Positions 1 through 47,099 of a DNA stretch of 64,000 nucleotides are shown here, in pieces; positions within the stretch are counted from its first letter, which is position 1, and every line of letters begins with the position of its first letter. Source of the stretch: a bacterium BMS3Abin06 (GTDB lineage: Bacteria; Nitrospirota; Thermodesulfovibrionia; UBA6902); contig BDSY01000106.1 in the NCBI GenBank assembly GCA_002897895.1, positions 1,922 to 65,921 of the forward strand, in the 5' to 3' direction. The notes under the pieces are model-generated. The model was given only the letters and a program-made list of their open reading frames with translations. It searched no databases and was not told where the DNA came from. The translations under genes were made by a program, and so were the position numbers.

Positions 1-59
1 GTAGGCTGTATAATATTCGAGGAGCTTGACGATTTCAGTCTTTTTTTTGCGTTTTTTTT

Positions 60-1349
60 TCACAAAACCTCAACAATCACTGATGATGATTGCCCGCCCA
101 CTCCATAGCTTACTGACAGAAAATGGTTTTTTGCACAACTCAGGGGAGATGCGGATATTTTTAAGCCGGAAAATTCTTTTTCAGTTGCCTGGAAATTTAA
201 TGTGGCGGGGACAGTCCCTTCTGCCACGGAATTAATACCCAGAATAACTTCTGCAATGTCACTCGCTGCTCCCATGTGCCCGGTATAAGGCTTTAGTCCG
301 CACAATGGCACGTCTGCTTTTTTATCACTGAGGACATCCATAAGCGACCATAACTCTGATCTGTCGCCTTTACGGGTACCGCTGCCGTGCGGAATGATAA
401 GAGCGAGATCGTCTATTGTACACGCTGTTTCCTCTATCACTGAAAGCATATTGCGCTTGCTGACTTTTGAGGGGACACTGAACGTATGATTTGAGGAAAA
501 CTCGATACAGTTTTCTACACCTTTTATTTTAGCAAGAACATTTGCGCCCCTTTTTTCTGCTATGTCGGCGGCTTCAAGAAAAATTGCGGAACCGCCCTCA
601 CCGGGAATAAATCCGTCTCTGTTTTTATCAAACGGTTTATAGGATTGAATGCCCTGTTTGCATTTTGAAAGTATTCCCAGGCCTTCAAGTTCATACAGGG
701 GGATTTCGGTTATCCAGTTGCCGTAGCCTACGGCTAATGCAACATCAGCTTTGTTTTGCTTAATGCTTCTGTATGCCATCTCCAGTGCGTTACCACCGTT
801 TGGTGAAAGAGTTGCCAGGCTGGTATTCGGCCCCATAAATTCTATGAAAGCCGAAAGAAAACTGAACAGATTATTATTTAATGACTCCAGCAGGAAAAAA
901 GGGTTAACCTTGTTTAATGCAGAGCTGTTAAGTTTTTCGTAATTTATTGACTCCCAATTTTTGTCGGTGCTCTCCTTTATGGCCGGATACATGAAATCAT
1001 AACCGAGCTTTGTGAAATCACCTGCTGCAACGTACAGGGCTCTCCGCCCCGGAGGAATATCTGCTATAATATCACGGGATTGAGAAACAGCTTCAGAGGC
1101 AGAGCAGAATCCAAGAATGGCGCCGCGATTCAGGAATTTCATCTGCCCCATCTGTTTTGGAGGGATGTCCGGCGGCAGATCATATTCAGCTACTTTGCCC
1201 GTATATTGAAGTACCTCAGGGAGGTTGTCTTTCGGATCACGGACTATGCCGGTCTTCATTGCTTTGACATTGCTCCAGCATTCCTCTGTATTTTTGCCGA
1301 TAGGAGTAGTAAGCCCGGTCCCTGTTATAACAATTTCCCGTTCATGCAT
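60..1349 (-). CDS. beta-ketoacyl-ACP synthase family protein (KAS I/II-like). The predicted active-site Cys is replaced by Ser.
   Basis: 429-aa ORF. N-terminus MHEREIVITGTGLTTPIG is typical of KAS. Conserved His motifs IIPHGSGT and GHMGAAS are present. The position equivalent to the FabF TACA(S) Cys reads ATLSPNGG. Confidence 0.8.
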   Translation of the reverse strand: MHEREIVITGTGLTTPIGKNTEECWSNVKAMKTGIVRDPKDNLPEVLQYTGKVAEYDLPPDIPPKQMGQMKFLNRGAILGFCSASEAVSQSRDIIADIPPGRRALYVAAGDFTKLGYDFMYPAIKESTDKNWESINYEKLNSSALNKVNPFFLLESLNNNLFSFLSAFIEFMGPNTSLATLSPNGGNALEMAYRSIKQNKADVALAVGYGNWITEIPLYELEGLGILSKCKQGIQSYKPFDKNRDGFIPGEGGSAIFLEAADIAEKRGANVLAKIKGVENCIEFSSNHTFSVPSKVSKRNMLSVIEETACTIDDLALIIPHGSGTRKGDRSELWSLMDVLSDKKADVPLCGLKPYTGHMGAASDIAEVILGINSVAEGTVPATLNFQATEKEFSGLKISASPLSCAKNHFLSVSYGVGGQSSSVIVEVL

Positions 1350-1353
1350 ACTG

Positions 1354-1803
1354 TTACCTCAACTCCCTGGTCAAAACCTTAAAGAACTTTTTCTGCTCTT
1401 CCACATCTTCAATATCTTCAAGCAATATGATTTCGCCTTCAAATTCTGCTGAGATCTTCTTTTTTCCTTTTACAAATCCGGTTCCTCTGTATACCTTTTT
1501 ATTCTGATCTCCTTCTGATACAAACTCAACTTCCAGTTCAACCTGGTCACCCGGAAATGCAAACCCGTAAAAAGCGGATTTCCCGACATTGCTGATCAGG
1601 AACCAGTTTTTAAAATCAGTTGATGCAGCTTCCAGCCAGCCTGTGAGCTGAGTTAATGCCTCCAACAGCATAACCCCGGGCATGATGGGATTTTTGGGGA
1701 AATGGAATTCGAGAAAATCTTCGCTCATTGCAACATTTTTAATGCCCTTGATTAACTCGCCGGGTTTATATTCTGTAATATGATCGATTAGCAGGTAACG
1801 CAT
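1354..1803 (-). CDS. FabZ/FabA-like 3-hydroxyacyl-ACP dehydratase (hot-dog fold)
   Basis: 149 aa. Lies 5 bp upstream of the KS gene. The ...HFPKNPIMPGVMLLEALTQ... motif is typical of FabZ-type dehydratases. Confidence 0.75.
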   Translation of the reverse strand: MRYLLIDHITEYKPGELIKGIKNVAMSEDFLEFHFPKNPIMPGVMLLEALTQLTGWLEAASTDFKNWFLISNVGKSAFYGFAFPGDQVELEVEFVSEGDQNKKVYRGTGFVKGKKKISAEFEGEIILLEDIEDVEEQKKFFKVLTRELR

Positions 1804-1838
1804 CGTATCGTTAATTCTCCTCTTTTATTTAAAGTTCT

Positions 1839-1964
1839 CAGGGAACAGTTGTCAGGGTGCAGGGTGCAGAAAAAAATATACATGGCTGACAGTAATACTG
1901 GCCGGTTCTTTTCCACACATCTAAATCTTCAAATTTCATCCTGCCCCCTGACAACTGCCCCCTG
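1839..1964. repeat. MITE/REP-like element. Terminal inverted repeats CAGGGTGCAGTTGTCAGGGTGCAG flank a ~90-nt core (copy 1 of 3).
   Basis: Left arm cagggaacagttgtcagggtgcagggtgcag. Right arm ctgccccctgacaactgccccctg. Homologous copies lie at 11573-11719 and 35859-35953. Sits between acpS and the dehydratase gene. Confidence 0.7.
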
Positions 1965-2001
1965 TTGTTACTAAATCACTTTGTGTGTCAAGAGTCTAAT
2001 A

Positions 2002-2400
2002 TTATACAGTATCCCGCCCGGTCAGTATTACCGTTGCAACTGCATGGTTTTCTGAATGAGAGATAGAAACGGTAAACTGATTTATACCCTTTTTCCCGCT
2101 TATTTTCTTTGCCCATCCGCTGAAAGAGAGCACGGGCTTTCCGGATGCTCCGGGTATGATCTCTATTTCTTTAAACATCCGGTCAATGCCTGTGCCGGAC
2201 ATTCCTGTGCCAAGCGCTTTAAGGCTTGCCTCTTTTGCCGCAAAACGGCCTGCAAAGTGTATGTAAGGGTCTTTTTTTGAGAGGCAGTATTCCCTCTCTT
2301 TTTCTGAAAAGATGTCAGAGACAAAGCTATCATTATTGAGAAATACTTTTTTGAATTTCGATATTTCTACAATGTCAACGCCCTGAAAGATCCGCATCAC
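2002..2400 (-). CDS. acpS: holo-ACP synthase (AcpS-type 4'-phosphopantetheinyl transferase)
   Basis: 132 aa. MRIFQGVDIVEISKF...FAAKEA motif as in AcpS. Overlaps fabG by 4 bp. Confidence 0.8.
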   Translation of the reverse strand: MMRIFQGVDIVEISKFKKVFLNNDSFVSDIFSEKEREYCLSKKDPYIHFAGRFAAKEASLKALGTGMSGTGIDRMFKEIEIIPGASGKPVLSFSGWAKKISGKKGINQFTVSISHSENHAVATVILTGRDTV

Positions 2401-3149
2401 GATATACTCATTCCTCCGTCAACAGATATTGCCTGGCCAGTAATGTAGTCTGCGTTATCAGAGGCAAGGAATACTACAACGTTTGCTATATCAGAGGGGT
2501 TACCATATCTGTTAGCAGGAATTCTTTCAAGTATCCTGTCTCCCGCCCGTTTTATGGCGCGACTGCTCATATCGGTTGCAATCATCCCCGGCAACACTGC
2601 ATTTATCCGGATGCCTTTGCCTGCCAGCTCAACTGCACATGCCCTGGTGAAAGAGATGAGCCCGCCTTTTGCAGATGCATAGTTGGTTTGCCCGCGAACA
2701 GCCTTTATGGCAACTATAGATGATATATTAATTATCTTTCCTGAATGATTGGCCATCATCATTTCAGCTGCATGCTGTGTGCATAGAAATGCCCCTCTCA
2801 AGTTTGTGTCAAGCACCTTGTCCCAGTCTGAAAGCTTCATTGCTATCAGTAAATTGTCTTTAATGATTCCTGCGTTGTTAACAAGAATGTCTAATTTATT
2901 ATATTTATCCATTATAAATGCGAAGAGCGCTTTAACTTCATCCGGATTTGAGACATCCGTCTGAAATACGTCCGCTTCATTACCGGCACTCAGGATTGCT
3001 TCTTTGACTTCGCCGGCCTTCTCTTTTGACTTGTTGTAATTGATAATCACCTTTGCTCCTGCTTTTGCAAGCTGAATGCCTGTTTCACGTCCAATGCCCC
3101 TGGATGCGCCGGTAACAAGGGCGACTTTGCCCGATAAATCAATTTTCAT
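2397..3149 (-). CDS. fabG: 3-oxoacyl-ACP reductase (FabG-like SDR)
   Basis: 250 aa. GKVALVTGASRGIGRE Rossmann motif. NAG and YxxxK SDR motifs. Overlaps the KS gene upstream by 4 bp. Confidence 0.85.
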   Translation of the reverse strand: MKIDLSGKVALVTGASRGIGRETGIQLAKAGAKVIINYNKSKEKAGEVKEAILSAGNEADVFQTDVSNPDEVKALFAFIMDKYNKLDILVNNAGIIKDNLLIAMKLSDWDKVLDTNLRGAFLCTQHAAEMMMANHSGKIINISSIVAIKAVRGQTNYASAKGGLISFTRACAVELAGKGIRINAVLPGMIATDMSSRAIKRAGDRILERIPANRYGNPSDIANVVVFLASDNADYITGQAISVDGGMSIS

Positions 3150-4456
3150 ATTTTGACCTCATCTTGAATCCCTGATTTAACATATTTTTTCACTACAATA
3201 GATGCATTCTGTCCGCCGAAACCGAATGAGTTTGAAATAGCTGCACGCACGGTTCCGGTTTTCTTCACATTCGGGACATAATCCAGATCACATTTCGGGT
3301 CAGGATTTTTCAGGTTAATAGTCGGGTGGATTTCATCCCTGTTCACACTTAATACAGTAAATACAAATTCAGGTCCACCGGAAGCTGCTATCAAATGCCC
3401 GATGATTGACTTGCTTGAGTTTATAGAAATATTGCAGGCGTTCTCTTTAAAAACTTTTTTAATTGCAAGTGTTTCTGCCGGGTCATTGAGTTTGGTGCTT
3501 GTGCCGTGGGCATTAATGTAATCTATCTCATCAACGCCCATATCCGCATCACTCAATGCCTTTATCATTGAGTGTTCTGCACCGCTACCCTGAGGATGGG
3601 GCGTCGTAACTTTATATGCGTCCATTGTTGAGCCGTATCCTGCAACTTCCGCATATACCTTTGCCCCCCTTTTGACTGCGTGGGATTCTTCTTCCAGAAT
3701 TGCTACACCGGCTCCTTCTCCCATGACAAGCCCTGATCGTTTCCTGTCAAAAGGCCTGCAAACTTCTGCCGGGTTTTCAGATGAGACAGAGGCAGCGCCG
3801 AGGAGGACAAAAAAGACAAGGCCGACCGGGTTTATCATGGAGTCGGCGCCGCCGGCAACCATCATATCCGCATCACCCCTGCTGATCGCCCTGTAAGCTG
3901 TTCCGATAGCCTGAGTGGCTGAAGCGCATGCAGTGGTTATGGTTGAATTATATCCGTTTAAGCCGAACCTCTTCGCAATCAGGGCCGCAGGCCTGTTTGA
4001 ATTATTTTTCATGAGAGATTCCCTGTGCACATTCTTATATTCTTTGCCGAATTTCAGGTAATCGAATTTACCATCTTTATTTGTCCAGCGTTGAATGTCT
4101 TCAAGCCTGTTTATTCCAAGACCTGCTGCCAGGGTAACGCCAAAACTGTCCCTGCAGCCGTCAAAATTTCCAAACCCTGCATCTTTCAGTGCGGATTGTG
4201 CAGCCCAGAGGGCAAAAAGCGTTCTCCTTTCACCTTCTTTTGCCGCATCATATTTGAATTCATTCTGTATTTTATCCCAGTCCTCTCCGGTCACTTGACC
4301 GACTGCCTGTACCGGTGATTTATCAGCACCCGGAAGCGCAAGTTTCGTGATGCCGGATATTCCGTCAAGCGCCTCTTGCCAGTTTTCCTCAACATCCAGG
4401 CCGAGCGAAGTTGCCAGTCCGAGCCCTGTAACAACAACTCTGCGCCTGCTAATCAT
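3146..4456 (-). CDS. beta-ketoacyl-ACP synthase I/II (canonical Cys-His-His)
   Basis: 436 aa. TTACASATQAIG active-site Cys motif. HGTST and GHLIAASG His motifs. Confidence 0.85.
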   Translation of the reverse strand: MISRRRVVVTGLGLATSLGLDVEENWQEALDGISGITKLALPGADKSPVQAVGQVTGEDWDKIQNEFKYDAAKEGERRTLFALWAAQSALKDAGFGNFDGCRDSFGVTLAAGLGINRLEDIQRWTNKDGKFDYLKFGKEYKNVHRESLMKNNSNRPAALIAKRFGLNGYNSTITTACASATQAIGTAYRAISRGDADMMVAGGADSMINPVGLVFFVLLGAASVSSENPAEVCRPFDRKRSGLVMGEGAGVAILEEESHAVKRGAKVYAEVAGYGSTMDAYKVTTPHPQGSGAEHSMIKALSDADMGVDEIDYINAHGTSTKLNDPAETLAIKKVFKENACNISINSSKSIIGHLIAASGGPEFVFTVLSVNRDEIHPTINLKNPDPKCDLDYVPNVKKTGTVRAAISNSFGFGGQNASIVVKKYVKSGIQDEVKI

Positions 4457-4909
4457 TCATGCTCCGTGATTAACCCTGATCCCACTGTAATAATAGAAGA
4501 GGGCTGAAAGATCCTCTGAATTGACTTTGTGGACATGGCTGTAAATTATGCGGTTCATTGAGGCTACTGTTTCGCCGTCAACTGTAATCCATGCCTTGCC
4601 GAGTGAATCCCTCCGGGAAGTGGAGATAATCTCTCCATGTATTTCAGCCCTGAAACCGGGTCTCAGTTCAGGGGGCACAGTTACATCTTCAACAAGTGAC
4701 ATGACTGCAGAGAGTTTAAAATTATGGGAATAAATAATCAGCCACCCGAGAAGCTGCGCCATTGCTTCTATATATATGATTCCGGGAACAAGCGCCTGTT
4801 TTTTGAAGTGCTTCCTGAAAAATTCTTCCGAAAGGGTGAAGGTCTTAACGCCGGTGATGGATTTGCCTTTTTCGATATTATCTATTTTATCGTAATACAA
4901 AAATCGCAT
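4457..4909 (-). CDS. FabA/FabZ-like hot-dog dehydratase
   Basis: 150 aa. Abuts the KS gene. ...HFKKQALVPGIIYIEAMAQ... resembles a FabZ/FabA active-site region. Confidence 0.7.
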   Translation of the reverse strand: MRFLYYDKIDNIEKGKSITGVKTFTLSEEFFRKHFKKQALVPGIIYIEAMAQLLGWLIIYSHNFKLSAVMSLVEDVTVPPELRPGFRAEIHGEIISTSRRDSLGKAWITVDGETVASMNRIIYSHVHKVNSEDLSALFYYYSGIRVNHGA

Positions 4910-4921
4910 CTATATGCCCTT

Positions 4922-6196
4922 TTAATCAATTGCCTCTATTATCAAAGAAGCGCACTGTCCTTCATAACTCCTGGAATTTATCAGTATCCGTTTCGGATTT
5001 GTTTTGAGCGGCTCCCTGCTCACAAGATTAAATTCAATGCTGTCATCTTCAGGCAGAGAATTATAAATAGCCGGAATTATACCATTTTTCAGGATATAAA
5101 TTCCCAGGACAGCATCAACAGCGGGTGCCCCTGCAAGCAGATGCCCCAAAGCCCCTTTTGAAGAAAACACATTGACTTTATCAATACAGCCCCCGAAAGT
5201 CCGATGAATTGCCTCGATCTCTTCCCTGTCTCCCATGTATGTGCCGTCAGCGTGGGCAATAATCAAATCAATGTCGGCAGGCCTGAGATTTGCCCGGGCA
5301 ATTGCCTTTTCCATTGAAAGGGAAATAGCCTTTGCGGCAGGGCAATTTGATTCTTTGCCTGTTTCAAAAGAAGCGCCGTATCCTGTGACGACTGCCAGAG
5401 GAGGGACATTTCTCTTCTCAGCAGTAGACTGCAGTTCCAGGGATATGATTCCGCAGCCTTCGCCTAAAACAGTTCCGCTTCTGCCTTTACCGAATGGGCG
5501 GCATTGAGCTTCATTGTCCGAGGTATTTAATATGCCGAAACACAGTGCGCGCGCCATACTCAGCGGTGAAACCTTTTCACTTACTCCACCTGCGAGCGCG
5601 ACCCGGGCTTTTTTTTCAATAACAATATTACAGGCTTCTATGATGGAATGTATGCCTGAGTCGGCATGAGAAGAGAAAACCGTATTTTCACCTTTGATGT
5701 TGAGATCAATAGCGACCTGGCAGAAACTTATATTGTTCAGCATTGAAAGAGGCCACAGAGGATGAATTTGCCGGCAGGCATCAGAAAAAAACCTGTCATA
5801 GTCTAAATTGCCTTCCCCGTCTAATGATTTCAAAACCGAAGGAAGAATATCTTCAATATTATAGTCGACCATTCCCATCCCGGCAAAGTATCCTGTTTCA
5901 TCCGGAGAAATGGAGCTGTTGTCAAGTTTCGACTGCTTATATGCACTGCGGCTGCTTTCCATCAGCATGAAAGAGTGCTTATCCATTATCCGCAAGTCCC
6001 TCGGGTGAATGCCGGGCACTGCAGGGTCCAGGCCCTGAACCTGAGCGGCTGCCTTACACTCGAATCCTTGCACATCAAAATCATCTACAGGCCGTATACC
6101 GCATTTGCCGGAGAGCAGGGCATCCCATGTTTCCGATGCACTGAGTCCGAGTGAGCTGACTATTCCTGTTCCGGTAATTACCACTTTGTCATCCAT
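4922..6196 (-). CDS. KS-like protein lacking an active-site Cys (chain-length-factor-like)
   Basis: Start placed at the internal ATG giving MDDKVVITGTGIV, which is typical of a KAS N-terminus; the longer ORF begins with TTG. His motifs AHADGT and GHLLAG are present, but the Cys position reads FSSHADSG. Confidence 0.7.
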   Translation of the reverse strand: MDDKVVITGTGIVSSLGLSASETWDALLSGKCGIRPVDDFDVQGFECKAAAQVQGLDPAVPGIHPRDLRIMDKHSFMLMESSRSAYKQSKLDNSSISPDETGYFAGMGMVDYNIEDILPSVLKSLDGEGNLDYDRFFSDACRQIHPLWPLSMLNNISFCQVAIDLNIKGENTVFSSHADSGIHSIIEACNIVIEKKARVALAGGVSEKVSPLSMARALCFGILNTSDNEAQCRPFGKGRSGTVLGEGCGIISLELQSTAEKRNVPPLAVVTGYGASFETGKESNCPAAKAISLSMEKAIARANLRPADIDLIIAHADGTYMGDREEIEAIHRTFGGCIDKVNVFSSKGALGHLLAGAPAVDAVLGIYILKNGIIPAIYNSLPEDDSIEFNLVSREPLKTNPKRILINSRSYEGQCASLIIEAID

Positions 6197-6561
6197 GATT
6201 ACAACATGATACAGGATGCATGATATACGATGCAATATGCAGCTCTCTTGCTGATACCGGCATCTCAAAAAACCATATGAACAGAGAAAATGCAATTTTA
6301 AAGCCTACCTGTCATTTTTGACAGGTGACATTTGAGAAATAAATCTGGTAATAATATATCACAAGCTATAACTACAGATAAACATATCCGAAATCCTGCA
6401 TTTATTTAACTGCAGAACCTATATTAGAGACAACGGCGGGGGGCCCCAACCAATATATGCTTGTTAGAGACAGGCTGAGTTGGGGCTTAACCTTTCTTAT
6501 AGAGTAAATGCCCATACCATTGCTGTAAAGCAAAGACAAAAAGGATAACAGAAAAATAAAT

Positions 6562-6798
6562 ATGGAATTTAAAATTAAAGCAGATATCCTGAATGAAACA
6601 GATAAGTGCAGAGAAAACCATTCCTGTTTAAACGGGGACAAAGACTGTCTCTGTGAGGTTGAAGACAGCTTCAGTAATAAAATAGTTTTCATTAAACCGG
6701 TTAACAATGCCGCTTGTGATTACAGGATGTCCTTTGGATATTCTTTTGTATGTAATTGTCCGACAAGGAAGGAGATTTTTAATCTCTATAAAAAGTAA
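6562..6798 (+). CDS. small Cys-rich hypothetical protein (78 aa, 7 Cys)
   Basis: ORF lies immediately upstream of the NarL-type regulator. Cys spacing C-x6-C-x-C...C...C-x-C. Paralogous to the ORF at 39645-39863. Confidence 0.35.
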   Translation: MEFKIKADILNETDKCRENHSCLNGDKDCLCEVEDSFSNKIVFIKPVNNAACDYRMSFGYSFVCNCPTRKEIFNLYKK

Positions 6799-6814
6799 TG
6801 AGCCCGGGACCGTC

Positions 6815-7471
6815 ATGTTAAAGCACAAGGTTTTTATAGTAGATGACCATCCTGTAATGTGTGAGGGGCTTTCACAGCTTATTAATAACGAAACAGACCT
6901 CACTGTTTGCGGGGATGCCCCCGATATCTCAAATGCATTGCAATCAATTCCCGAATGCAGGCCTGACGCAGCAATAGTTGATATTTCTCTCCGGAAAGGC
7001 AGCGGCATCCGGCTCATAGAAGAGCTCTCGATCAGCAACAGGAATTTGCCGGTTCTGGTTCTCTCCATGCACGAGGAATCCATTTATGCAGAACGATGCC
7101 TGAAGGCAGGGGCCAAAGGCTATATTATGAAACAGCAGTCTCCCGGGGAAGTGATATCGGCATTAAGAAAGATTCTGGACGGGGAAATATACGTTAGTGA
7201 AAATCTGAGATCAACTCTCTTTAATAAATTAATTACCAAACGATTTAAAGCGGATACTTCCCCGGTTGACAGACTCAGCAACCGCGAGCTTGAAGTCTTT
7301 CAGCTCATTGGGCAGGGCTTGCAAACGCGACAGGTTGCAGGAGAACTAAACCTCAGTGTCAAAACCATTGAAACCTATATAGAACATATAAAGCAAAAAA
7401 TGAACTTCAAGAGTCTCCATGAGCTTATCATACACGCCATTCGCTGGTTAACAGCCGGGAAGATACTCTAA
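6815..7471 (+). CDS. NarL/FixJ-family response regulator (REC + LuxR HTH)
   Basis: Start at MLKHKVFIVDDHPV, matching the N-terminus of the paralog at 9118. The LSNRELEVFQLIGQGL motif marks the LuxR-type HTH. Confidence 0.85.
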   Translation: MLKHKVFIVDDHPVMCEGLSQLINNETDLTVCGDAPDISNALQSIPECRPDAAIVDISLRKGSGIRLIEELSISNRNLPVLVLSMHEESIYAERCLKAGAKGYIMKQQSPGEVISALRKILDGEIYVSENLRSTLFNKLITKRFKADTSPVDRLSNRELEVFQLIGQGLQTRQVAGELNLSVKTIETYIEHIKQKMNFKSLHELIIHAIRWLTAGKIL

Positions 7472-7790
7472 TTGCAAGCCGCTGAATCTCCCTGCAAGAA
7501 CATTACTGCTTCTTATTCGCCCTGAAAACTTTGCCATTGATTAATCTCAGTGGTTAATTTAGAATCAGAGTCAATAAAAAAATCTGATATAATTTAGTAT
7601 GTGTATAAATAACACAGATGCTCAAAAGCATGTCATTCCCGCAAGCGAAGCGCGTCGGGAATGCTTTGTAAAGAAACGATTCCGGACAAGCCGGAATGAC
7701 AGGAAAACGACAAGTGTTTGAGTTTATACACAAACTCTGATTACAGTAATGAGAGAAATCGTTTAAGACTCGATTCTACGAGAGGAGATA

Positions 7791-8912
7791 ATGAAAGACC
7801 GATTGCAGCTTGAAGAGCTGTTACAAAGAAAAGGCGCAGAATTATCTGCTGCCAATGCCCGGCTCCAACAGGAAATTATCGACCGCATAGAAACTGAGAT
7901 AAAGCTGAGACAGGAAATTCACCTGAACAAGACTCTATTGAATAATATGCCCTGTGTGGCCATTCTCCTAAGGCCGGGCACGCGGGAGATTGTTGCGGCA
8001 AATGAGATGGCAATCAAGGCCGGCGCTGTTCCGGGCAAGCAGTGTTTTGCAACCCTCGGACAGCAAAAGTACCCGTGTCCCTGGTGTCTTGCTTCAAGGC
8101 TATGGGATGCCGGAAAAGTGCAGCGTCTGGAAGTGGAGGTGTCGGGTGTTGTATGGGATGTTCACTGGCTTCCCGTGTCGGATGATCTGTATATGCGCTA
8201 TGCTTCCGACATCACTGAGCGTAAAAAACTGGAAAAATCACTTATAGAGACCGAGGAACGGGAACGTCGCCGCATTGGACAGGACCTGCATGACGGACTG
8301 GGCCAGCTGCTTACCGGCATTTCATTTAAAACAAGCGGCCTGGTACGCAAATTAGAAAATAGCTGCCTGGAAGGGGCCGAAGATGCAACAGAGATTTCCA
8401 TCCTTGTAGATAAGGCAAAAAAAGAGGTTAGCCGTATGTCAAAGGGCCTTTTGCCTGTAGAAACGGATAAGGAAGGTCTTATGGCAGCCCTCGAGGAGCT
8501 TGCCGACCATACTAAAAAAATGTTTGGAATACCATGTGTTTTTAAATGCGATAAACCTGTTACTGTACGTAATAAAACAGCTGTTGCACAATTATACCGT
8601 ATTGCGCAGGAAGCGGTTACTAATGCTGTTAAACACGGCAAACCCAGGAAGGTCGAAATTTTTCTTACTGAGGAACACGGTAATATCTCACTGATAATAA
8701 AAGATGATGGAACAGGCATCCCGGAGATATCCCGGCATACTGGTGGTATGGGGCTGAAAATTATGAACTACCGGGCCGGCATAATCAATGCATCATTTGA
8801 TATCCGGCGGGATATCAGGGGAGGAACAATAGTAACATGTATTCTTCCGGACAAGCCGGGGGAAAAAATATATCCAAAAATTCAGATGTCTCGTAAGAGC
8901 TCCGGTACATAG
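7791..8912 (+). CDS. sensor histidine kinase (Cys-containing PAS + HisKA_3 + HATPase), NarX/DegS-like
   Basis: H-box ERERRRIGQDLHDGLGQ (HisKA_3). N/G boxes VTNAVKHG, DDGTGI, GGMGLKIM. PAS region contains C...CPWC. Confidence 0.85.
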   Translation: MKDRLQLEELLQRKGAELSAANARLQQEIIDRIETEIKLRQEIHLNKTLLNNMPCVAILLRPGTREIVAANEMAIKAGAVPGKQCFATLGQQKYPCPWCLASRLWDAGKVQRLEVEVSGVVWDVHWLPVSDDLYMRYASDITERKKLEKSLIETEERERRRIGQDLHDGLGQLLTGISFKTSGLVRKLENSCLEGAEDATEISILVDKAKKEVSRMSKGLLPVETDKEGLMAALEELADHTKKMFGIPCVFKCDKPVTVRNKTAVAQLYRIAQEAVTNAVKHGKPRKVEIFLTEEHGNISLIIKDDGTGIPEISRHTGGMGLKIMNYRAGIINASFDIRRDIRGGTIVTCILPDKPGEKIYPKIQMSRKSSGT

Positions 8913-9046
8913 AGTGCAAAACTGTTCTGCCTGGCCCGGTAACTTCAGTATTTTTTTGTGATAATATTAAAATACAGAATATAGTAATAGTTCACCTATA
9001 GGAAAATGTTTAATAGGAATTCAGAATTCAGGAGACAGGAGTCAGA

Positions 9047-9121
9047 ATGAAAAGATTAAAATCAAAATTATTAGAGGCATATTCCATTCTGGCTTCTGGC
9101 TTCTTCAAGGGTACCTTATGA
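9047..9121 (+). CDS. possible 24-aa upstream ORF (MKRLKSKLLEAYSILASGFFKGTL)
   Basis: Good RBS (caggagacaggag) 7 nt upstream. Stop overlaps the regulator's ATG in an ATGA arrangement. Too short for the ORF track. Confidence 0.2.
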   Translation: MKRLKSKLLEAYSILASGFFKGTL

Positions 9122-9771
9122 AGCACAAAGTTTTTATAGTCGATGATCATCCCATTGTGCGCCAGGGGCTTGCGCAGCTCATTAACCAGGAAATTGATTT
9201 TACGGTTTGCGGAGATGCGGGAGATGTCCCTCAAGCGTTAAAGGCTGTTGCAGACTCTCATCCGGACATTGTCATAGTCGATATTTCTCTCGGTCACAGC
9301 AGTGGAATAAAACTCATAGAAGATCTCATTTCACGCTATCCGGACTTATTCATTCTGATTCTTTCCATGCACGAGGAATCCGTATATGCCGAGCGTTGTC
9401 TCGGGGCGGGAGCAAGAGGCTATATTATGAAACAGGAACCGCCGGAGAAAGTAATATCCGCGTTAAAAAAGATTATGAACGGAGAAATATTTATCAGTGA
9501 CAAATTGAGCATAAAACTTTTACATAAAATCGTAAACAAGAAATCCGGTGTTTACAGTTCTCCTATTGATAGCCTAAGCAACCGTGAACTGGAGGTGTTC
9601 AGGCTGATCGGCCAGGGGTTGAAAACACGAAAGATAGCGGAAGATTTAAATCTCAGCATTAAAACCATTGAAACCTATGTAGATCATATCAAGAAGAAAA
9701 TGAACTTCCAGGACTCCCGCAATTTATTCCTGCATGCGGTTCAATGGTTAATGAATGAAGATACAAAATAA
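9118..9771 (+). CDS. NarL/FixJ-family response regulator
   Basis: 217 aa. MKHKVFIVDDHPIVRQGL...D(54)ISL...LuxR HTH. Paralog of 6815-7471. Confidence 0.85.
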   Translation: MKHKVFIVDDHPIVRQGLAQLINQEIDFTVCGDAGDVPQALKAVADSHPDIVIVDISLGHSSGIKLIEDLISRYPDLFILILSMHEESVYAERCLGAGARGYIMKQEPPEKVISALKKIMNGEIFISDKLSIKLLHKIVNKKSGVYSSPIDSLSNRELEVFRLIGQGLKTRKIAEDLNLSIKTIETYVDHIKKKMNFQDSRNLFLHAVQWLMNEDTK

Positions 9772-9818
9772 TTATTCAGACTCCTTACATCTTACCTTTT
9801 TTACCGGAGTATAGAGAA

Positions 9819-9888
9819 AACCCCTATACGTGGTAAGGGTTTCCCTTTCAAAAAAAACATATTTTCCCCTCTATAAAGAATTTCCTGT
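9819..9888 (+). promoter_or_regulatory. conserved ~70-nt upstream element (cccctatacgtggtaagggtttcccttt-caaaaaaaacatattttcccctctataaaga), copy 1
   Basis: About 80% identical to 11740-11807. Both lie ~110-140 bp upstream of + strand regulatory genes (the rpoD-like gene and an MCP). Confidence 0.4.
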
Positions 9889-9962
9889 TAGTAGGATAAT
9901 ATGACGGTCTGAATATAAGAATTCTAAATACATAAATTTAAAATTATTTCAGGGAGGCCGCG

Positions 9963-10028
9963 ATGACAGCTATTGTTATGAGGCGCAGGGAAGCAATAAT
10001 GTCTGTAAAGGCTGAGGGGTGGACATGA
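9963..10028 (+). CDS. possible 21-aa upstream ORF ([21 protein letters not shown])
   Basis: RBS gggagg 5 nt upstream. Stop overlaps the rpoD-like ATG (ATGA). Confidence 0.2.
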
Positions 10029-11551
10029 TTATGGAGAGCGCAAAGGCCCGCTCAAATACAAATTCCTCTTCAGACGACCCGATAAAAATGTATCTCAGGG
10101 ATATAGAATGCATCCCCCTTCTTACCAAACAAAGTGAAATAGATCTTGCCGTGAAAATAGAGGCCGGGAAAGAAAATATATCAAAGATTATTTTCACGGC
10201 TCCTTTCGTAATTAAGCACATATTAAAGCTCCCTCAACTGTTAAAGGGGGGAAAAGTTTCAATAAACAATACTTGCTCACCTGAAAAAGCCGGTGCGAGC
10301 CGGTTCCATGACCTGTCGGAAACAGAAAAAAAAGAGGTTTTGGAAGAGTTTTTAAAAACTGTCAGGTCATTAAAATATCTTATCCGGAAAAGGGATTCGT
10401 CTTTTGAATACCCAGCCAATAAAAGACTGAGCCGGAAAAATGCTGAAAAAAGAAATATCCGCTTAATAAAAAACAATAATAAAATAATTGATAAGATATC
10501 CGCTCTCCATCTAAAAGAAAAAATAATTGAAGGCTTCCTGTCTCAATTTAAAAAACTGGCAGCCTTATATGAAAATATATCCGGGGAGATAAGCAATATT
10601 CAGGAGAATGTAAAAATACCTCCTGCAAAATTAAGAAACAAAAACATATTACTTGATAAAGCGGATCAATTGGATAAAGAGCCGCATGAAATCAAAAAAC
10701 TCTATAGCAATTACAGGCGTCTCAGGAATGAAATGGCAATTATAGAGTCGGAGCTGGGGCTTAAAGGGATTGAAATAGAAAAAGCATTAAAGCTCATTCA
10801 GGAGAATGAGGAAGAAATCACTGAAGCAAAAAAAATGCTTACAGAAGCAAACCTGAGACTTGTGATCAGTATAGCAAGAAAACACATTGGCAGAGGGCTC
10901 AGCCTGACTGATCTTATTCAGGAAGGCAATATCGGACTGATGAGGGCTGTTGATAAATTCGACTATAAAAAAGGCTACAAATTCAGCACCTATGCGACCT
11001 GGTGGATACGGCAGGCAATCACACGGGCATTGGCGGACCAGGGAAGGACTATAAGGCTTCCCGTTCATATGATAGAGACCATAAACAGGCTGACACAGGT
11101 ATCCAAACACCTCGTTCAGGAACTTGGGAGAGAGCCACGGGCGGAAGAGATTGCAGGAAGGATGAATTTACCTTTAGAGAGAGTGCGGACAATTCTGAAG
11201 ATATGCAAGGAGCCAATCTCCCTGGAGACCCCCATAGGCAGCGATGAGGACAGTCACCTGGAAGACTTTATAGAGGATAAGGCATCACTTATTCCGCTGG
11301 ATGCAGTTATTCAGCAGGAACTGAAGGAGCAGGTAAAAAAAGTTATAAGTTCTCTTACGAATAAGGAAACAGAAATTATCAAAAGACGTTTTGGCCTTAC
11401 AGACAGCGTTTCACAAACGCTTGAAGAGGTAGGCAAACATTTTAAGGTCACACGGGAGAGAATAAGGCAATTAGAAGGAAAGGCACTGAGAAAGTTAAGG
11501 CATCCGGCAAAAAGTCAGTCGCTCAAACTTTTTCTGGAGAAACGTTTTTAA
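10025..11551 (+). CDS. RpoD-like sigma-70 factor (group 1/2), paralog A
   Basis: Region 2: [61 protein letters not shown]. Region 4 near the C-terminus ([24 protein letters not shown]). Region-1.2-like N-terminus ([10 protein letters not shown]). RBS gagggg precedes the ATG at 10025. Confidence 0.85.
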
Positions 11552-41915: not shown

Positions 41916-44531
41916 ATGGACGTAATTACAACTCATCTGAATGCCGACTTTGATGCCCTTGCCTCTATGGCTGCCGCCCGGAAATACTATCCTGACGCAA
42001 TTATTGTATTTCCGGGGTCGCAGGAAAAAAACGTCCGTGATTTCCTGGAAAAATCGCATATAACGCTGGAATTCAGAAAACTCAAAGATATTAATCTTCA
42101 GGAGGTCACCCGGTTAATCCTTGTCGATGTCAAGAGCCCTTCAAGGATCGGAAAATTTTCGGAGATATTAGGCAAGGAGGGGCTGATAATCCATATATTC
42201 GACCACCATCCACTTGCAGCTAAGGACATAAAGGGAGATAAAGAAATTATAGAAAATGTAGGAGCCACTACAACCATCTTTACGGAAATGATCCGGAAAG
42301 ACAAAATCCGGCTTTCGCCGGTTGAAGCCACATTATTAATGCTGGGTATTTACGAGGAAACCGGATCTCTCATTTTCCCGTCCACAACAGTAAGAGACCT
42401 GACGGCAGCCGCCTTTCTGCTTAAAAAAGGGGCTAACCTGAAAATCGTTTCAGGCTTTATCACCAGAGAGCTTGGCCCAGAGGAGATTGACCTGCTCAAT
42501 GAACTCATTCAGGCTGCAAGAGGTTACGTAATTCACGACATGAGGATAAAAATCGCCAGGGCATCCAGAGAGACTTATATCGGGGATATTGCTTTTTTAG
42601 CGCATAAGATACTGGAGATTGAAGAGGTTGATGCAATTTTCCTTGTTGTGATGATGAAAGACAGGGTGCAGGTTATAGCAAGGAGCCACACACCTGAAGT
42701 AGACGTCTCCGAAGTGCTGCATGAAATCGGAGGCGGCGGCCATCCGCAGGCAGCCTCGGCAGTTGTCAGAGACATGTCGCTGGAGGAAACCGAAAGCAGG
42801 CTTTTGAGTATCCTGGAGAAAAAAATACACCCCTCAAAAACAGCAAAGGATATAATGACGAGTCCGGTGAAGACCATCCCATGGAACACTACGATTAAAA
42901 CAGCGGAAAAAACCATGACAAAGTATGGGGTCAATGTTTTGCCTGTCCTCAAAAAAGATATCTTTTACGGACTCATATCCAGGGAGGTGGTTGAAAAGGC
43001 GCTCTTTCACGGTTTTGACAAAAGCAGGGTTGCGGAATTCTGTACAACAGGTGTCCCTACAGTAAAGCCCTCAACAGCATTAAACATAGTTGAGTCACTG
43101 ATGATAGAACAAAACCGGAGGTTTATGCCCGTGGTTGAGGGTAATAAAATCACAGGAGCAATAACAAGGACCGACCTGCTGCGGTCGCTGTATGAAAGCC
43201 TTTTGAGAAAAAACAGGATAAGCGCGCGTGAAAAATTAACGGAAAAACCTTCCATAGGCAAAAATCTCTCATCTGCCCTCAAATCCAGATTTCCACCAGA
43301 GATCTTCAATCTGCTCAAATTATCAGGTGAAGTTGCCGGTGATCTTGGATTTTCAGCATACCTCGTAGGCGGCTCGGTCAGAGACCTCCTGCGGGGGGAA
43401 ACAAATTTTGACATAGATATTGTAATTGAAGGCAACGGGATAACCTTTGCGCAGGCGCTCGCTGAAAAACTCAATGTGAAGGTTAAAAGCCACAAGAGGT
43501 TCGGCACAGCGGTTGTAATAACGGACTTTTTGAAGTTTGATGTGGCCACTGCAAGGACTGAATATTACGAATCTCCCGCAGCCCTGCCCAGGGTGGAAAT
43601 ATCATCGATAAAAAAAGACCTTTACAGGAGGGACTTTACCATAAACACACTGGCAATAAAACTGGATCCCGGGGATTTCGGAAAGCTTATTGATTTTTTC
43701 GGCGGACAGAAAGACATTAAGGAAAAGACAATAAGGATCCTCCACAATCTCAGCTTCATAGAAGACCCTACACGGGCTTTCAGGGCCATAAGATTCTCCG
43801 AGCGTTTCGGTTTCAAGATAAGCAAGCATACGATAAATTTAATAAAAACCGCTGTACGCATAAATCTCTTCGACAAACTGTCCGGCTCCAGAATGTACGA
43901 TGAGCTTAATCTCCTGTTCACGGAAACAGAACCGCTAAAGGCAGTCAAAAGGCTGGCTGAATTAGATCTCCTGAAATTCATCCATCACGGCCTTGCGGTC
44001 ACAAAGACACTTGAAGAGACATTTAAGGCCATACAGGAGACATATGCCTGGTTCAAACTCCTTTTCTTTGAGGAAGAACTGAACAAGTCACATCTCTTTC
44101 TCATGGCGCTGCTTAATGAGTTAACCCCACGGGAAAGGAGCGAGGCATTACAAAGACTCTTTGTCCCGCCTGCTGCACGGAAGGAAATACTCGATGCCAT
44201 TGAACAGTCGGAAAAGGCCCTCACCGGACTGCAAAAGGCATCTCAAAAAGAAATCTACCATACACTATTTCCTCTCAACCTTCCAACCATCCTCTTCACG
44301 ATGGCAAGGGCCGGGGATGAGGAGCAGAAAAAGGCCATCTCCCTGTATTTAACTGAATTAAGAAAAATCAGGCCTGAACTCAGAGGAAAAGACCTTAAAA
44401 ACATGGGATATACACCCGGGCCGCTCTTTAAGAAGATATTAGTATCACTGCTTGAGGCGAGACTCGAAAGAAAAATCAAAAGCCGGGAAGAAGAGATTGA
44501 GTTTGTGAAAAACAACTTCCCTGTTCAATAA
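41916..44531 (+). CDS. DHH/DHHA1-CBS-polyA polymerase / tRNA nucleotidyltransferase (CCA-adding family) fusion protein
   Basis: Start at MDVITTHLNADFDAL (DHH motif I). IFDHHP. GGGGHPQAA (DHHA1). Tandem CBS region. GGSVRDLLRG...DIDIV nucleotidyltransferase head. Confidence 0.8.
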   Translation: MDVITTHLNADFDALASMAAARKYYPDAIIVFPGSQEKNVRDFLEKSHITLEFRKLKDINLQEVTRLILVDVKSPSRIGKFSEILGKEGLIIHIFDHHPLAAKDIKGDKEIIENVGATTTIFTEMIRKDKIRLSPVEATLLMLGIYEETGSLIFPSTTVRDLTAAAFLLKKGANLKIVSGFITRELGPEEIDLLNELIQAARGYVIHDMRIKIARASRETYIGDIAFLAHKILEIEEVDAIFLVVMMKDRVQVIARSHTPEVDVSEVLHEIGGGGHPQAASAVVRDMSLEETESRLLSILEKKIHPSKTAKDIMTSPVKTIPWNTTIKTAEKTMTKYGVNVLPVLKKDIFYGLISREVVEKALFHGFDKSRVAEFCTTGVPTVKPSTALNIVESLMIEQNRRFMPVVEGNKITGAITRTDLLRSLYESLLRKNRISAREKLTEKPSIGKNLSSALKSRFPPEIFNLLKLSGEVAGDLGFSAYLVGGSVRDLLRGETNFDIDIVIEGNGITFAQALAEKLNVKVKSHKRFGTAVVITDFLKFDVATARTEYYESPAALPRVEISSIKKDLYRRDFTINTLAIKLDPGDFGKLIDFFGGQKDIKEKTIRILHNLSFIEDPTRAFRAIRFSERFGFKISKHTINLIKTAVRINLFDKLSGSRMYDELNLLFTETEPLKAVKRLAELDLLKFIHHGLAVTKTLEETFKAIQETYAWFKLLFFEEELNKSHLFLMALLNELTPRERSEALQRLFVPPAARKEILDAIEQSEKALTGLQKASQKEIYHTLFPLNLPTILFTMARAGDEEQKKAISLYLTELRKIRPELRGKDLKNMGYTPGPLFKKILVSLLEARLERKIKSREEEIEFVKNNFPVQ

Positions 44532-44548
44532 CGGCTGAAACAATGTCT

Positions 44549-44764
44549 TTAAACAATCCTTACCCCCGTATAATAACAGCAGTGTGAACTCTCAAGGTCA
44601 TTGATAAACGATCTCTCCTTTCCATCTTCAAACAGAATCCTTACAAAACAGAACCCGCCTGAAAGATGGGAATGCCTTTCTTCAATAACCTCGCCTACAC
44701 CCCACCGGGAATAATTAAGGTGATTTACCTTATCACCTACCCTCAGATACAGCCTCTTTCTCAT
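44549..44764 (-). CDS. DUF3553-like small protein
   Basis: Start placed at MRKRLYLRVGDKVNH. ...WGVGEVIEE...VRILFEDGKERSF resembles a DUF3553/Tudor-like fold. The longer ORF track start seems unlikely. Confidence 0.5.
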   Translation of the reverse strand: MRKRLYLRVGDKVNHLNYSRWGVGEVIEERHSHLSGGFCFVRILFEDGKERSFINDLESSHCCYYTGVRIV

Positions 44765-44898
44765 AATTAATATTATAAAATAATAATACGGACATGCAAA
44801 AATTATTTTGCCGGCACAACGGATGTTGAGTTGTAAAATCCCATCCGTTATGTTATAAAACAGACTGAAATTCAAGATAATTTAAAGGAGAGAGTCAG

Positions 44899-45822
44899 AT
44901 GAAAAAAATTTTGTTTTACATTTTATTATTGTCATTTTCAACCGTATTTCTTCTGGGATGCGATCAATCCGGGGATGCAAAGACAGACAGCCCTGTTATT
45001 GCAAAAGTTGACAATGCAGTAATTACGGAAGATGATTTTATCAAGGCGATCAGCCGTGTGCCGGAATGGGCAAGAAGCCAGTTCACGGATAAAGAAGGCA
45101 AAATGAAATTCCTTGATGAACTTATTAAAAGAGAGCTGATTTATCAGAATGCAAAAAACATGAGGCTTAACAAAGATAAGGATTATGTTGCAAAGGTTGA
45201 AGAGTTTAAGAAAATGACGCTTCTGTCTCTTATCATCAATAAAGAAGTTGAAGAAAAAGCAAGGGTAGACGATGCAGAGGTCAAGGCATTCTTCGATGAA
45301 AACAAAGATAAATTCACAGTAGGCACACAGGTGAGGGCAAGCCACATCCTTGTGGATACGGAAAAAGAAGCAAAAGATATACTTGAAAGAATTGAGAAAG
45401 GCGAAAGCTTTGCCGCACTTGCAAAATCCCTCTCCAAAGATAAAGGTTCAGCGGAAAAAGGAGGCGACCTCGGTTATTTCGGCAGAGGCAAGATGGTGCC
45501 GGAATTTGAGAGAGCGGCGCTCGCTCTTAAACCGGGAGAGATCAGCGATCCTGTGAGGACCCGCTTCGGCTATCACATTATTAAACTCATGGATATAAAA
45601 AAGGGGAAGCCGGCTAATTTCGAACAAACAAAAGAATCAATAAGAAAACAGCTCATCATGCAGAAAAAGAAGGAGCTTTTTGATGCATACGTTGAAAAGT
45701 TAAAAGCAGAAAGCAATATAACGAAGGATGAAGAGATAGTCGCAGCCATCCCTCTTCCGTGGGAACCGGCTGAGGAATCAGAAGCGGAGCCCGGACAGCA
45801 GGAAGAACCGGAGGCGGAATAA
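44899..45822 (+). CDS. parvulin-type peptidyl-prolyl isomerase lipoprotein (PrsA/SurA-like)
   Basis: Lipobox LLGC. Parvulin domain SHILV...GGDLGYFGRGKMVPEFE...GYHIIKL. Confidence 0.85.
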   Translation: MKKILFYILLLSFSTVFLLGCDQSGDAKTDSPVIAKVDNAVITEDDFIKAISRVPEWARSQFTDKEGKMKFLDELIKRELIYQNAKNMRLNKDKDYVAKVEEFKKMTLLSLIINKEVEEKARVDDAEVKAFFDENKDKFTVGTQVRASHILVDTEKEAKDILERIEKGESFAALAKSLSKDKGSAEKGGDLGYFGRGKMVPEFERAALALKPGEISDPVRTRFGYHIIKLMDIKKGKPANFEQTKESIRKQLIMQKKKELFDAYVEKLKAESNITKDEEIVAAIPLPWEPAEESEAEPGQQEEPEAE

Positions 45823-45877
45823 ACTAAATTAATCCTTTCTGCCGGTCATTGGCGGATTATACGGAAAGCCACAAAAT

Positions 45878-45920
45878 GCAGGATTCAGGTTGCAAAAAAA
45901 CCTGAATCCTGCATTTTTTT
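45878..45920 (+). terminator. rho-independent terminator downstream of the PPIase gene
   Basis: gcaggattcaggtt-tgcaaaa-aacctgaatcctgc followed by T7. Confidence 0.8.
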
Positions 45921-46171
45921 AATTAGAGTCTATGCCTGAACTCAATGTGTCTGTCTGTCATTCCGGCAGTCTTTAACCGGAATCCATTCTTTTCAATAGG
46001 TTCTGGATGCCCGATTAAAAACTTCGGGCATGACGAAAATAAAAAATAGCAATTTTTAAAAGTTGCTCCAATAATTCAGTCTGAACTGTTTGTGAGCTTA
46101 ATCACATTTTTATTCGAATATGATAGTAAATAATAGAGTTCATTTAAGAGATAAAAACGCAGGGGGGAGCA

Positions 46172-46558
46172 ATGACAATAAACAGGATGGTAATAAGATT
46201 CAAAGACAAATCATTAATGAAAGGAAGAAGCAGTGACTTTTCTCTTGATAAAACATCCTTCCATTTGAAACTCTTAAGCGGCGAAGTAGTGACAGTCGAT
46301 ATGGAAAGGTTGAAAGCAGTGTTCCATGTTAAAAGTCTAAGCGGCAATAAAAACTATAAGTGCTCATACAAGGACCCTATTCTCTGGGGAGGCAATAAGG
46401 TCAGAGTCGAGTTTCTCGACGGGGAAGTAATGGTAGGGTATACTCCTTACCACATTTCCGGGAATAACGCTGTCTTAATAACACCTGCCGACTTGCGATG
46501 CAACAACAAACAGATTTTTGTCATAACTTCCGCAACCAGAGAAATAACTTTCCTGTAG
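46172..46558 (+). CDS. hypothetical protein with internal two-fold repeat
   Basis: 128 aa. The two halves (VIRFKDKS...LKAVFHVKS and VRVEFLDGE...IFVITSA) are related. No recognised motif. Confidence 0.5.
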   Translation: MTINRMVIRFKDKSLMKGRSSDFSLDKTSFHLKLLSGEVVTVDMERLKAVFHVKSLSGNKNYKCSYKDPILWGGNKVRVEFLDGEVMVGYTPYHISGNNAVLITPADLRCNNKQIFVITSATREITFL

Positions 46559-46620
46559 CCCATGGGCAAAGTGATGCATTGCGGCCTTGCTGCAACCGGG
46601 AAAGCCTAAGACAACTCTTT

Positions 46621-46914: not shown

Positions 46915-47099
46915 AATATCCTCCTTTCCGGACTATTTAACAAGGTTTATCACTCAGTCCGGCATTATCTGAATTCTATCAAATATACACCGGAAGTCAA
47001 TGTTTGCAGTCCTCCATTTTTAGATCTCAGTATTTGTTTTATCCCTGAAATCCGCTTTGGGGAGGCAAATAAATCTTTGCCTCCCCGGATAATCCTCTG

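Follow-up and report, generated by a model that had tools for sequence, protein, structure and literature searches.

What does a bacterium make with an operon that encodes three ketosynthase (KS) homologs, only one of which has the active-site cysteine? The question is raised by a 64,000-nt stretch of contig BDSY01000106.1 (assembly GCA_002897895.1, positions 1,922 to 65,921 of the forward strand) from the Nitrospirota bacterium BMS3Abin06, hereafter called the window, in which seven genes at positions 60-6196 encode these homologs (KS-A, KS-B and KS-C) together with two hot-dog dehydratases (DH1 and DH2), a FabG-like 3-oxoacyl-acyl carrier protein (ACP) reductase (KR) and an AcpS-type 4'-phosphopantetheinyl transferase. 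The original prediction, made from the sequence alone, saw here a specialised pathway of the type II polyketide synthase (PKS) or aryl-polyene (APE) kind rather than a plain housekeeping fab operon. The analysis reported below supports a specialised lipid pathway and speaks against the affiliation with PKS or APE systems. The operon belongs to an additional system of fatty-acid synthesis that is conserved among uncultured anaerobes and has so far gone uncharacterised. We lean towards the view that this is a dedicated second system derived from the type II pathway of fatty acid synthesis (FAS-II), whose product is probably installed by an acyltransferase (AT) of the LpxL/LpxM family on lipid A or a closely related outer-membrane lipid. 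This proposal builds on observed gene content, gene order, residue conservation, synteny and the neighbourhood of lipid A genes.

The seven open reading frames (ORFs) were found at the predicted coordinates, every one on the minus strand, so that transcription runs from KS-C through DH1, KS-B, KR, AcpS and DH2 to KS-A, with spacings of 12, 0, -4, -4, 198 and 4 nt. All seven gave strong family matches in Pfam and NCBIfam searches. The suggestion that an acyltransferase be sought past the window edge was rewarded: a public contig of identical sequence (L001) extends beyond window position 1 and reveals an eighth gene, that of AT, whose start at window position 63 gives it a 4-nt overlap with the KS-A stop. 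The first 21 of its codons lie within the window (positions 1-63, minus strand; residues 9-21 map to positions 39 to 1 by tblastn) and the remainder of the 315-aa product is encoded outside it. Across the eight genes, spacing varies from -4 to 12 nt except for the single 198-nt gap.

How widely this arrangement is shared was gauged from a pattern scan for KS-A in one genome per species, which returned 157 confirmed relatives; the best 80 loci were retrieved, and the ORFs called in all of them were matched to the window proteins. These 80 loci all belong to metagenome-assembled genomes (MAGs) of Nitrospirota (Thermodesulfovibrionia-type) and Desulfobacterota (Syntrophobacteraceae, Desulfobacteraceae and Desulfarculales), and the same cluster is present in two Acidobacteriota contigs (L088 and L089) and, in a reduced form, in a 4.7-Mb contig (L090). 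In 73 of 74 loci the gene immediately upstream of KS-A is DH2, AcpS lies within the cluster in 57 of 68, and DH1 always accompanies KS-C among the loci. In many relatives a full form is found as one unit of 10-11 genes, ER-ACP-KS-D-KS-C-DH1-KS-B-KR-AcpS-DH2-KS-A-AT, commonly with 4-nt overlaps; about half of the loci begin with the first three of these genes. ER encodes a short-chain dehydrogenase/reductase nearest to the FabL enoyl-ACP reductase (209 bits, cut-off 328), and KS-D is a fourth, catalytically complete ketosynthase. The proteins are named 'hypothetical' or 'beta-ketoacyl synthase N-terminal-like domain-containing protein' at NCBI, and several literature searches turned up no publication that deals with the cluster.

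The ACP of the full system is a long and highly conserved protein of 187 aa (range 185-188; 728 database matches), in which an N-terminus that matches ACP models ('DLGAESLD') is followed by some 100 extra residues with a C-terminal CxxC...CxxC; within this extra part the set C139/C142/C157/C160 is invariant. It is encoded at loci L028-L084, L088, L090, L091 and L093 (e.g. L091:8001-8564). Its AlphaFold model (pLDDT 90) matches ACPs only, and the extra part has no match among solved structures. The clade to which the window belongs does not carry the ER-ACP-KS-D trio at this locus, and no ACP, FabH or FabD was detectable by tblastn across the whole 64 kb. The idea that the window, or its 198-nt gap, conceals an ACP was rejected, as tblastn with AcpP, ApeE/F and the long ACP returned nothing. 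That the window holds no ACP had been predicted; the proposal that the gene may lie beyond position 1 did not hold, since that flank is occupied by AT and then an unrelated gene. In five related genomes the system is split in the same way, with the gene for the long ACP at another place in the genome. The locus-tag pairs of the split MAGs are DDX85_13090/14040, HZA14_06010/00790, HZA16_12215/12845 and C4560_10570/04605, and on the complete chromosome CP070644.1 the KS-A locus is found at 0.59 Mb and an ER-ACP-KS-D operon at 2.34 Mb. Judging from these relatives, the ACP of the window genome is most probably encoded at a second locus and not beyond the window edge.

The KS active sites were assigned by HMMER alignments to solved FabF structures, and the assignments agree with the prediction that only the middle KS has a Cys. 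This protein, KS-B (3146-4456; PF00109 144 bits, PF02801 117 bits), carries 'TTACASA', a complete Cys-His-Lys-His set and an FGFGG gate, with catalytic positions that are invariant in 57 sequences (56 orthologs and the window). In KS-A (60-1349; PF00109 80 bits, PF02801 50 bits), 'ATLSPNG' aligns with FabF 'ATACTSG', which puts a Ser (S182) at the Cys position, and in KS-C (4922-6196; PF00109 121 bits, PF02801 75 bits) 'SSHADSG' aligns with 'VTACATG', which puts an Ala there. The two flanking proteins had also been said to keep both catalytic His, and in this window they do, along with the Lys. Among solved ketosynthases all three score best against ordinary FabF structures. KS-A and KS-C fall far under the FabF cut-off of 493.75 bits (TIGR03150, 179 and 250 bits, respectively), and KS-B, with 425 bits, passes broader subfamily models only. 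The start of KS-C is uncertain, the candidates being an ATG at 6196, a TTG at 6235 (the public gene call) and a TTG at 6295.

A neighbour-joining tree resolved four separate monophyletic KS families, of which KS-B and KS-D lie near FabF, none of their orthologs having lost a catalytic or gating residue; KS-A and KS-C have diverged strongly. Across 49 KS-C sequences (48 orthologs and the window) the Cys position is occupied by Ala, Gly or Ser and never by Cys, and the remaining catalytic residues are retained in part only (His303 in 29, His340 in 25 and Lys335 in 32 of the 49). Such decay of the triad across a family is the pattern of a non-catalytic partner, and KS-C appears to behave like a chain-length factor (CLF). 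The original claim of a KS plus CLF-like pair therefore stands as far as the CLF-like character of KS-C is concerned; no CLF of the Gln type was found.

KS-A keeps H321, K353 and H358, and its gating Phe is replaced by Val (Val or Ile across the family). No substitution was seen at the Ser, the Pro that follows it, either His, the Lys or the Asp of the GD motif in any of 120 database homologs or 81 locus sequences (80 locus orthologs and the window), and the Ser is retained in representatives down to about 35% identity. Because the Ser-His-Lys-His set is invariant, KS-A is probably a functional variant, and the strict retention of Ser, and not just of any small residue, argues that its hydroxyl matters. 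Ketosynthase variants in which Cys is replaced by Ser, Ala or Gln are known to decarboxylate. KS-A may decarboxylate malonyl-ACP or prime synthesis in a cluster that lacks FabH, or it may be a second partner subunit. A Cys two positions past the Ser (residue 184, window 803-805), which is found in 74 of the 120 homologs ('SLSPCG'), was considered as an alternative nucleophile and rejected, this position being Asn in the window and Tyr, Ser or Gly elsewhere, and thus not conserved. Foldseek searches with the KS-A model returned ordinary FabF and FabB only and allowed no functional discrimination. On the 4.7-Mb contig (L090:11348-13907), a KS-A-like protein has Pro at the Cys position.

DH1 (4457-4909; Pfam 48 bits) and DH2 (1354-1803; FabA-like Pfam 66 bits) are divergent FabZ-like dehydratases that keep the catalytic His and Glu and are 32-40% identical to genuine FabZ (DH2, 32-35%). 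They score 65 and 85 bits, respectively, against the FabZ model TIGR01750 (cut-off 155) and 65 and 90 bits against NF000582 (cut-off 113); the canonical FabZ of a related genome, by comparison, shares 51% identity with that of E. coli. KR (2397-3149; adh_short_C2 236 bits) is 43.5% identical to E. coli FabG and 36% to ApeQ, and reaches 288 bits against TIGR01830 (cut-off 297.75) while passing NF009466 (253 vs 222). AcpS (2002-2400; PF01648 61.7 bits) passes TIGR00516 with 73.5 bits (cut-off 59.8).

These scores bear on whether the operon might be a variant of primary fatty acid synthesis, either an anaerobic unsaturated-fatty-acid branch with FabA/FabB-like roles or an ordinary acyl supply for lipid A with AcpS as the only phosphopantetheinyl transferase of the cell. 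KS-B, KR and AcpS do pass some general FabF, FabG and AcpS model cut-offs. AcpS and KR are absent from the cluster in some genomes, implying exchange with housekeeping functions, and the cluster has neither FabD nor FabH and so depends on primary metabolism. Measured against housekeeping FAS-II, however, KS-A, KS-B, KS-C, DH1, DH2 and KR are all under the tested NCBIfam equivalog cut-offs for FabF, FabZ and FabG, and the two Cys-less KS paralogs form monophyletic families far from FabF. The full system has a dedicated and unusual 187-aa ACP and an ER of its own, KS-A is tightly coupled to AT, and a canonical FabZ is encoded elsewhere in a related genome (CP070644.1, lpxD-fabZ-lpxA). We thus regard a primary role as distinctly improbable, and the prediction that this is not a plain housekeeping locus is supported.

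The affiliation with APE or type II PKS pathways, which would make a polyene or pigment by means of a KS and CLF pair and with no enoyl reduction, was assessed with the APE cluster of E. coli CFT073 as one reference and the fab, lpxL and fabZ loci of strain K-12 as the other. There is a superficial match in gene types to the APE core (three KS-like proteins, two hot-dog dehydratases, one KR and one LPLAT-type acyltransferase of PF03279), precomputed Pfam annotation gives 'ApeI-like' on DH2, and the window itself has no ER. BLASTP, however, always favoured FabF, FabG, FabZ and LpxL over the respective APE counterparts (ApeO/R/C, ApeQ, ApeP/I and ApeD), and membership in the APE family was rejected. 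At E<0.001, DH1 and DH2 had no BLASTP match to ApeI or ApeP, and neither AT against ApeD nor KS-A and KS-C against ApeC gave any. The 'ApeI-like' label is non-specific, because the genuine FabZ of a related genome carries the same ApeI/ApeP-like Pfam matches. The APE cluster further differs in having a short CLF of 240 aa (ApeC), ApeH, ApeK, ApeJ, ApeL/M/N and two small ACPs, and in having no ER. The FabL-like ER in the same operon of relatives implies a saturated chain and makes a polyene or aromatic product unlikely. An aryl-starter adenylating enzyme, a thioesterase and LolA-like, MMPL or DUF3261 export genes occur neither in the window operon nor in the Nitrospirota loci, a convergent MMPL set being confined to Desulfobacterota loci, and no glycosyltransferase is present. 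As to type II PKSs, the Gln that marks their CLF is not found at the Cys position (Ser in KS-A; Ala, Gly or Ser in the KS-C family), DH1 separates KS-C from KS-B in the window, the operon has no cyclase-like ORF, and adjacency of the KS/CLF kind is seen only in the 4-nt overlap of the KS-D and KS-C genes in the full form of many relatives. A polyene or polyketide pathway therefore appears very unlikely, the least probable of the explanations considered here.

The nature of the acyltransferase and of its neighbours is suggestive of the destination of the product. AT matches PF03279 with 151.5 bits (cut-off 22.3), its best NCBIfam matches are models of the lauroyl acyltransferase of lipid A biosynthesis, and its 'PHIGNWEV' aligns with 'PHFGTWEV' of LpxM (5kn7), the catalytic HX4E being kept. 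The distance from KS-A to this downstream gene is at most 600 nt in 70 of 76 loci. In 16 of the 38 Nitrospirota loci with enough downstream sequence, AT is followed on the same strand and within 4.5 kb by lpxB, waaA and lpxK (lpxB 294 bits and lpxK 197 bits, both above cut-off). On L090 an MsbA-type ABC transporter gene comes next after the KS-A-like one, two PF03279 genes on the opposite strand flank the cluster and LpxB is encoded nearby; on CP070644.1 the ER-ACP-KS-D operon adjoins lpxD-fabZ-lpxA-lpxI and two sugar-modifying genes. Gene neighbourhoods thus point to an envelope lipid, with lipid A as the most specific candidate, and this context supports the notion that AT may acylate a Kdo2-lipid IVA-type acceptor from acyl-ACP. 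A further pairing of a KS with lipid A genes was observed on the opposite strand of a Desulfobacteraceae locus (L054:13388-15800), where a second KS (39% identical to KS-B) lies beside a second PF03279 gene (24% to AT) and waaA.

Several observations weigh against our proposal. Those that concern AT would fit an otherwise identical dedicated system in which the enzyme decorates another acceptor, such as an outer-membrane glycolipid, a lysophospholipid or an exported lipid: AT is below all NCBIfam equivalog cut-offs for LpxL and LpxM (best, 143 vs 273 bits), and PF03279 also covers enzymes outside lipid A synthesis such as PatA and ApeD. The lipid A neighbourhood is found in under half of the Nitrospirota loci, and on the window's own contig, as seen in L001, AT is followed by a 190-nt gap and an unrelated HEAT-like ORF and by no lipid A gene. 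Moreover, 11 of the 38 Nitrospirota loci have a condensation-like protein, a GHSQG lipoprotein and an ICMT-like methyltransferase directly after AT, and 14 of 20 Desulfobacterota loci have a convergent MlaC/HpnM-like-MMPL-TolC-like set that would fit any outer-membrane lipid. On the other side, AT resembles LpxM (41 bits) more closely than PatA (20 bits) and has no BLAST match to ApeD, and neighbourhoods with lpxB-waaA-lpxK, an MsbA-like transporter, LpxB or lpxD-fabZ-lpxA recur in independent lineages. An acceptor other than lipid A or a close relative thus seems unlikely to us, though it is the rival that we take most seriously. The proposal as a whole is further weakened by the fact that some loci have no AcpS in the cluster, some no KR and some no KS-C/DH1 pair, so that the machinery is in part interchangeable with housekeeping enzymes; that the named homologs come exclusively from MAGs, the search for a cultured carrier having come up empty; and that the structure model of KS-A is of moderate confidence only (pLDDT 74), with a poorly modelled active-site loop.

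The genes around AT were also noted in their own right. The three-part module that follows AT (loci L026, L027, L033, L036-L038, L040, L043, L050, L056 and L064) consists of a weakly condensation-domain-like protein of about 430 aa, a lipoprotein of about 356 aa with the GHSQG serine-hydrolase motif and an ICMT-like membrane methyltransferase, and may tailor the lipid product. In Syntrophobacteraceae-type loci (L053, L058, L060, L063, L067 and L069-L083), genes for MlaC/HpnM-like, MMPL/RND and TolC-like proteins on the opposite strand face AT.

Returning to the dedicated system with lipid A or a closely related lipid as acceptor, the following sequence of events can be proposed, in which we infer the ACP partner in this genome, the pairing of the KSs, the chemistry of KS-A, the acceptor and the structure of the chain. 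AcpS would activate the dedicated 187-aa ACP, encoded elsewhere in this clade together with the FabL-like ER and KS-D. KS-B would carry out condensations, and KS-C, a catalytically decayed FabF paralog, would serve as the CLF-like partner of an active KS. KS-A, as a functional variant, would most likely initiate chains by decarboxylating malonyl-ACP or otherwise priming synthesis, or else act as a second non-condensing partner. KR, DH1 and DH2 would process the beta-carbon and ER would saturate the chain, whereupon AT, translationally coupled to KS-A, would transfer the finished chain from ACP to the lipid acceptor. A bolder version, which we put forward tentatively and hold to be possible rather than probable, is that KS-A founds a new class of stand-alone Ser-His-His enzymes of the ketosynthase fold that use Ser catalytically, be it in priming, in condensation or in an acyl-O-enzyme relay to AT. 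The system, with this enzyme and the zinc-ribbon-tailed ACP, would then build an unusual lipid A chain, which could be very long, outer-membrane-spanning or bifunctional, in uncultured anaerobes of the Nitrospirota, Desulfobacterota and Acidobacteriota, and the strategy by which rhizobia make very-long-chain fatty acids would have been invented a second time independently.

If the proposal is true, large groups of environmentally important anaerobes, among them Thermodesulfovibrionia, Syntrophobacteraceae and some Acidobacteriota, use an unstudied system of 8-11 genes to furnish their outer membrane with a purpose-built acyl chain. New lipid A structures, and possibly new lipid biomarkers, would then be predicted, and the odd 'fatty-acid-like' clusters that genome-mining tools report in these phyla would be accounted for. 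The system also offers two natural experiments, namely a KS (KS-C) in decay toward a CLF and a KS (KS-A) in which Cys has been swapped for an invariant Ser in an otherwise preserved active site. The four-Cys tail of the 187-aa ACP is a further unexplained part.

Beyond the coding sequences, a truncated ORF starting 'MKFEDLDVWKR' is enclosed by a long inverted repeat (GGGCAGTTGTCAGGG ... CCCTGACAACTG) in the 198-nt gap between AcpS and DH2 (1804-2001); the start of the ORF is reminiscent of the N-terminus of four-helix-bundle (23S rRNA intervening-sequence) proteins. The contents of the gap are not conserved among relatives, where the distance between AcpS and DH2 ranges from small overlaps to about 3.3 kb, and this variation suggests repeated insertions at this point. 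Upstream of KS-C, a promoter-like site (CTGTCA-18-TAAAAT, 6295-6324, minus strand), a consensus match only and no proof of function, is overlapped by the palindrome TGTCA-N4-TGACA at 6310-6323 (perfect in the form CCTGTCA-AAAA-TGACAGG). The palindrome may be an operator; it recurs upstream of KS-C only in L005, a relative with 90% identity. Rfam and tRNA scans of the region and of the window gave nothing above threshold. At 6707-11551, upstream of the operon and divergent from it, two response regulators of the LuxR/GerE type lie on either side of a HisKA_3 histidine kinase and are followed by an RpoD-like sigma-70 gene, a neighbourhood that is not kept in more distant loci. The cumulative GC skew of the window reaches its maximum near 46 kb (44000-48000), where gene orientation changes from plus to minus; this turn may be due to simple strand bias or to a replication-related switch.

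With which known systems, then, is this operon best compared? The closest functional analogue is the rhizobial AcpXL-LpxXL system, in which the acpXL-fabZXL-fabF2XL-fabF1XL-adh-lpxXL cluster, with a dedicated ACP, one additional FabZ and two additional FabF paralogs, produces the very-long-chain fatty acid found in lipid A and needs FabD and other enzymes of the housekeeping pathway (PMC11901934). Like the operon described here, it ends in an LpxL-family acyltransferase gene that is translationally coupled to the preceding gene. The full-form loci contain this composition and exceed it; in the window the ACP is missing. AcpXL (PDB 3lmo/2kw2) is among the longest structural alignments of the relatives' long ACP (122 columns), but has about 92 aa as opposed to the 187 aa and the C-terminal four-Cys domain found here. 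The system analysed here differs further in its up to four KSs (two without Cys), its two dehydratases, its own KR, FabL-like ER and AcpS, and the phyla concerned (Nitrospirota, Desulfobacterota and Acidobacteriota), and it has no gene for a Zn-dehydrogenase (adh). Scores against the NCBIfam models PRK09116, PRK06519 and PRK06508, which we take to represent the XL proteins, were far below the cut-offs.

A Ser in place of Cys with both His kept, as in KS-A, is found in the KS-S loading domains of polyene-macrolide type I PKSs (NysA, AmphA, PimS0), which are thought to initiate chains by decarboxylating malonyl-ACP. These domains reside inside modular megasynthases, whereas KS-A is a stand-alone FabF-like protein in a fatty-acid context and is coupled to AT. 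For the KS pair, the closest precedent is the anammox amxFabF2/amxFabFmut complex, a KS/CLF-like heterodimer that stems from FabF and whose subunits decarboxylate malonyl-ACP only when joined (bioRxiv 10.64898/2026.05.19.726425). Here too the paralogs descend from FabF and not from PKSs, one has the triad and the other, like KS-C, has no Cys and decaying His, and their genes lie side by side in an operon that also encodes a special ACP and a special FabZ; the initiation of synthesis by decarboxylation of malonyl-ACP offers a role that could suit a cluster without FabH. Chains B and C of PDB 9s5h, which we do not claim to be the anammox heterodimer, scored well against the three KSs of the operon. 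The radical-SAM and phytoene-desaturase-like genes of anammox Cluster I are not among the conserved neighbours of the 80 loci, and the present operon differs in having a second Cys-less paralog, KS-A, with an invariant Ser-His-Lys-His set, and in ending in AT. The deltaproteobacterial clusters of Rattray et al. 2009, with their radical-SAM, CoA-ligase and glycosyltransferase genes, were set aside as a different system. Neither the rhizobial nor the anammox system matches the one described here in size, in the presence of a second Cys-less KS whose Ser is conserved, in having an ER and an AcpS of its own, in the long ACP or in the phyla concerned.

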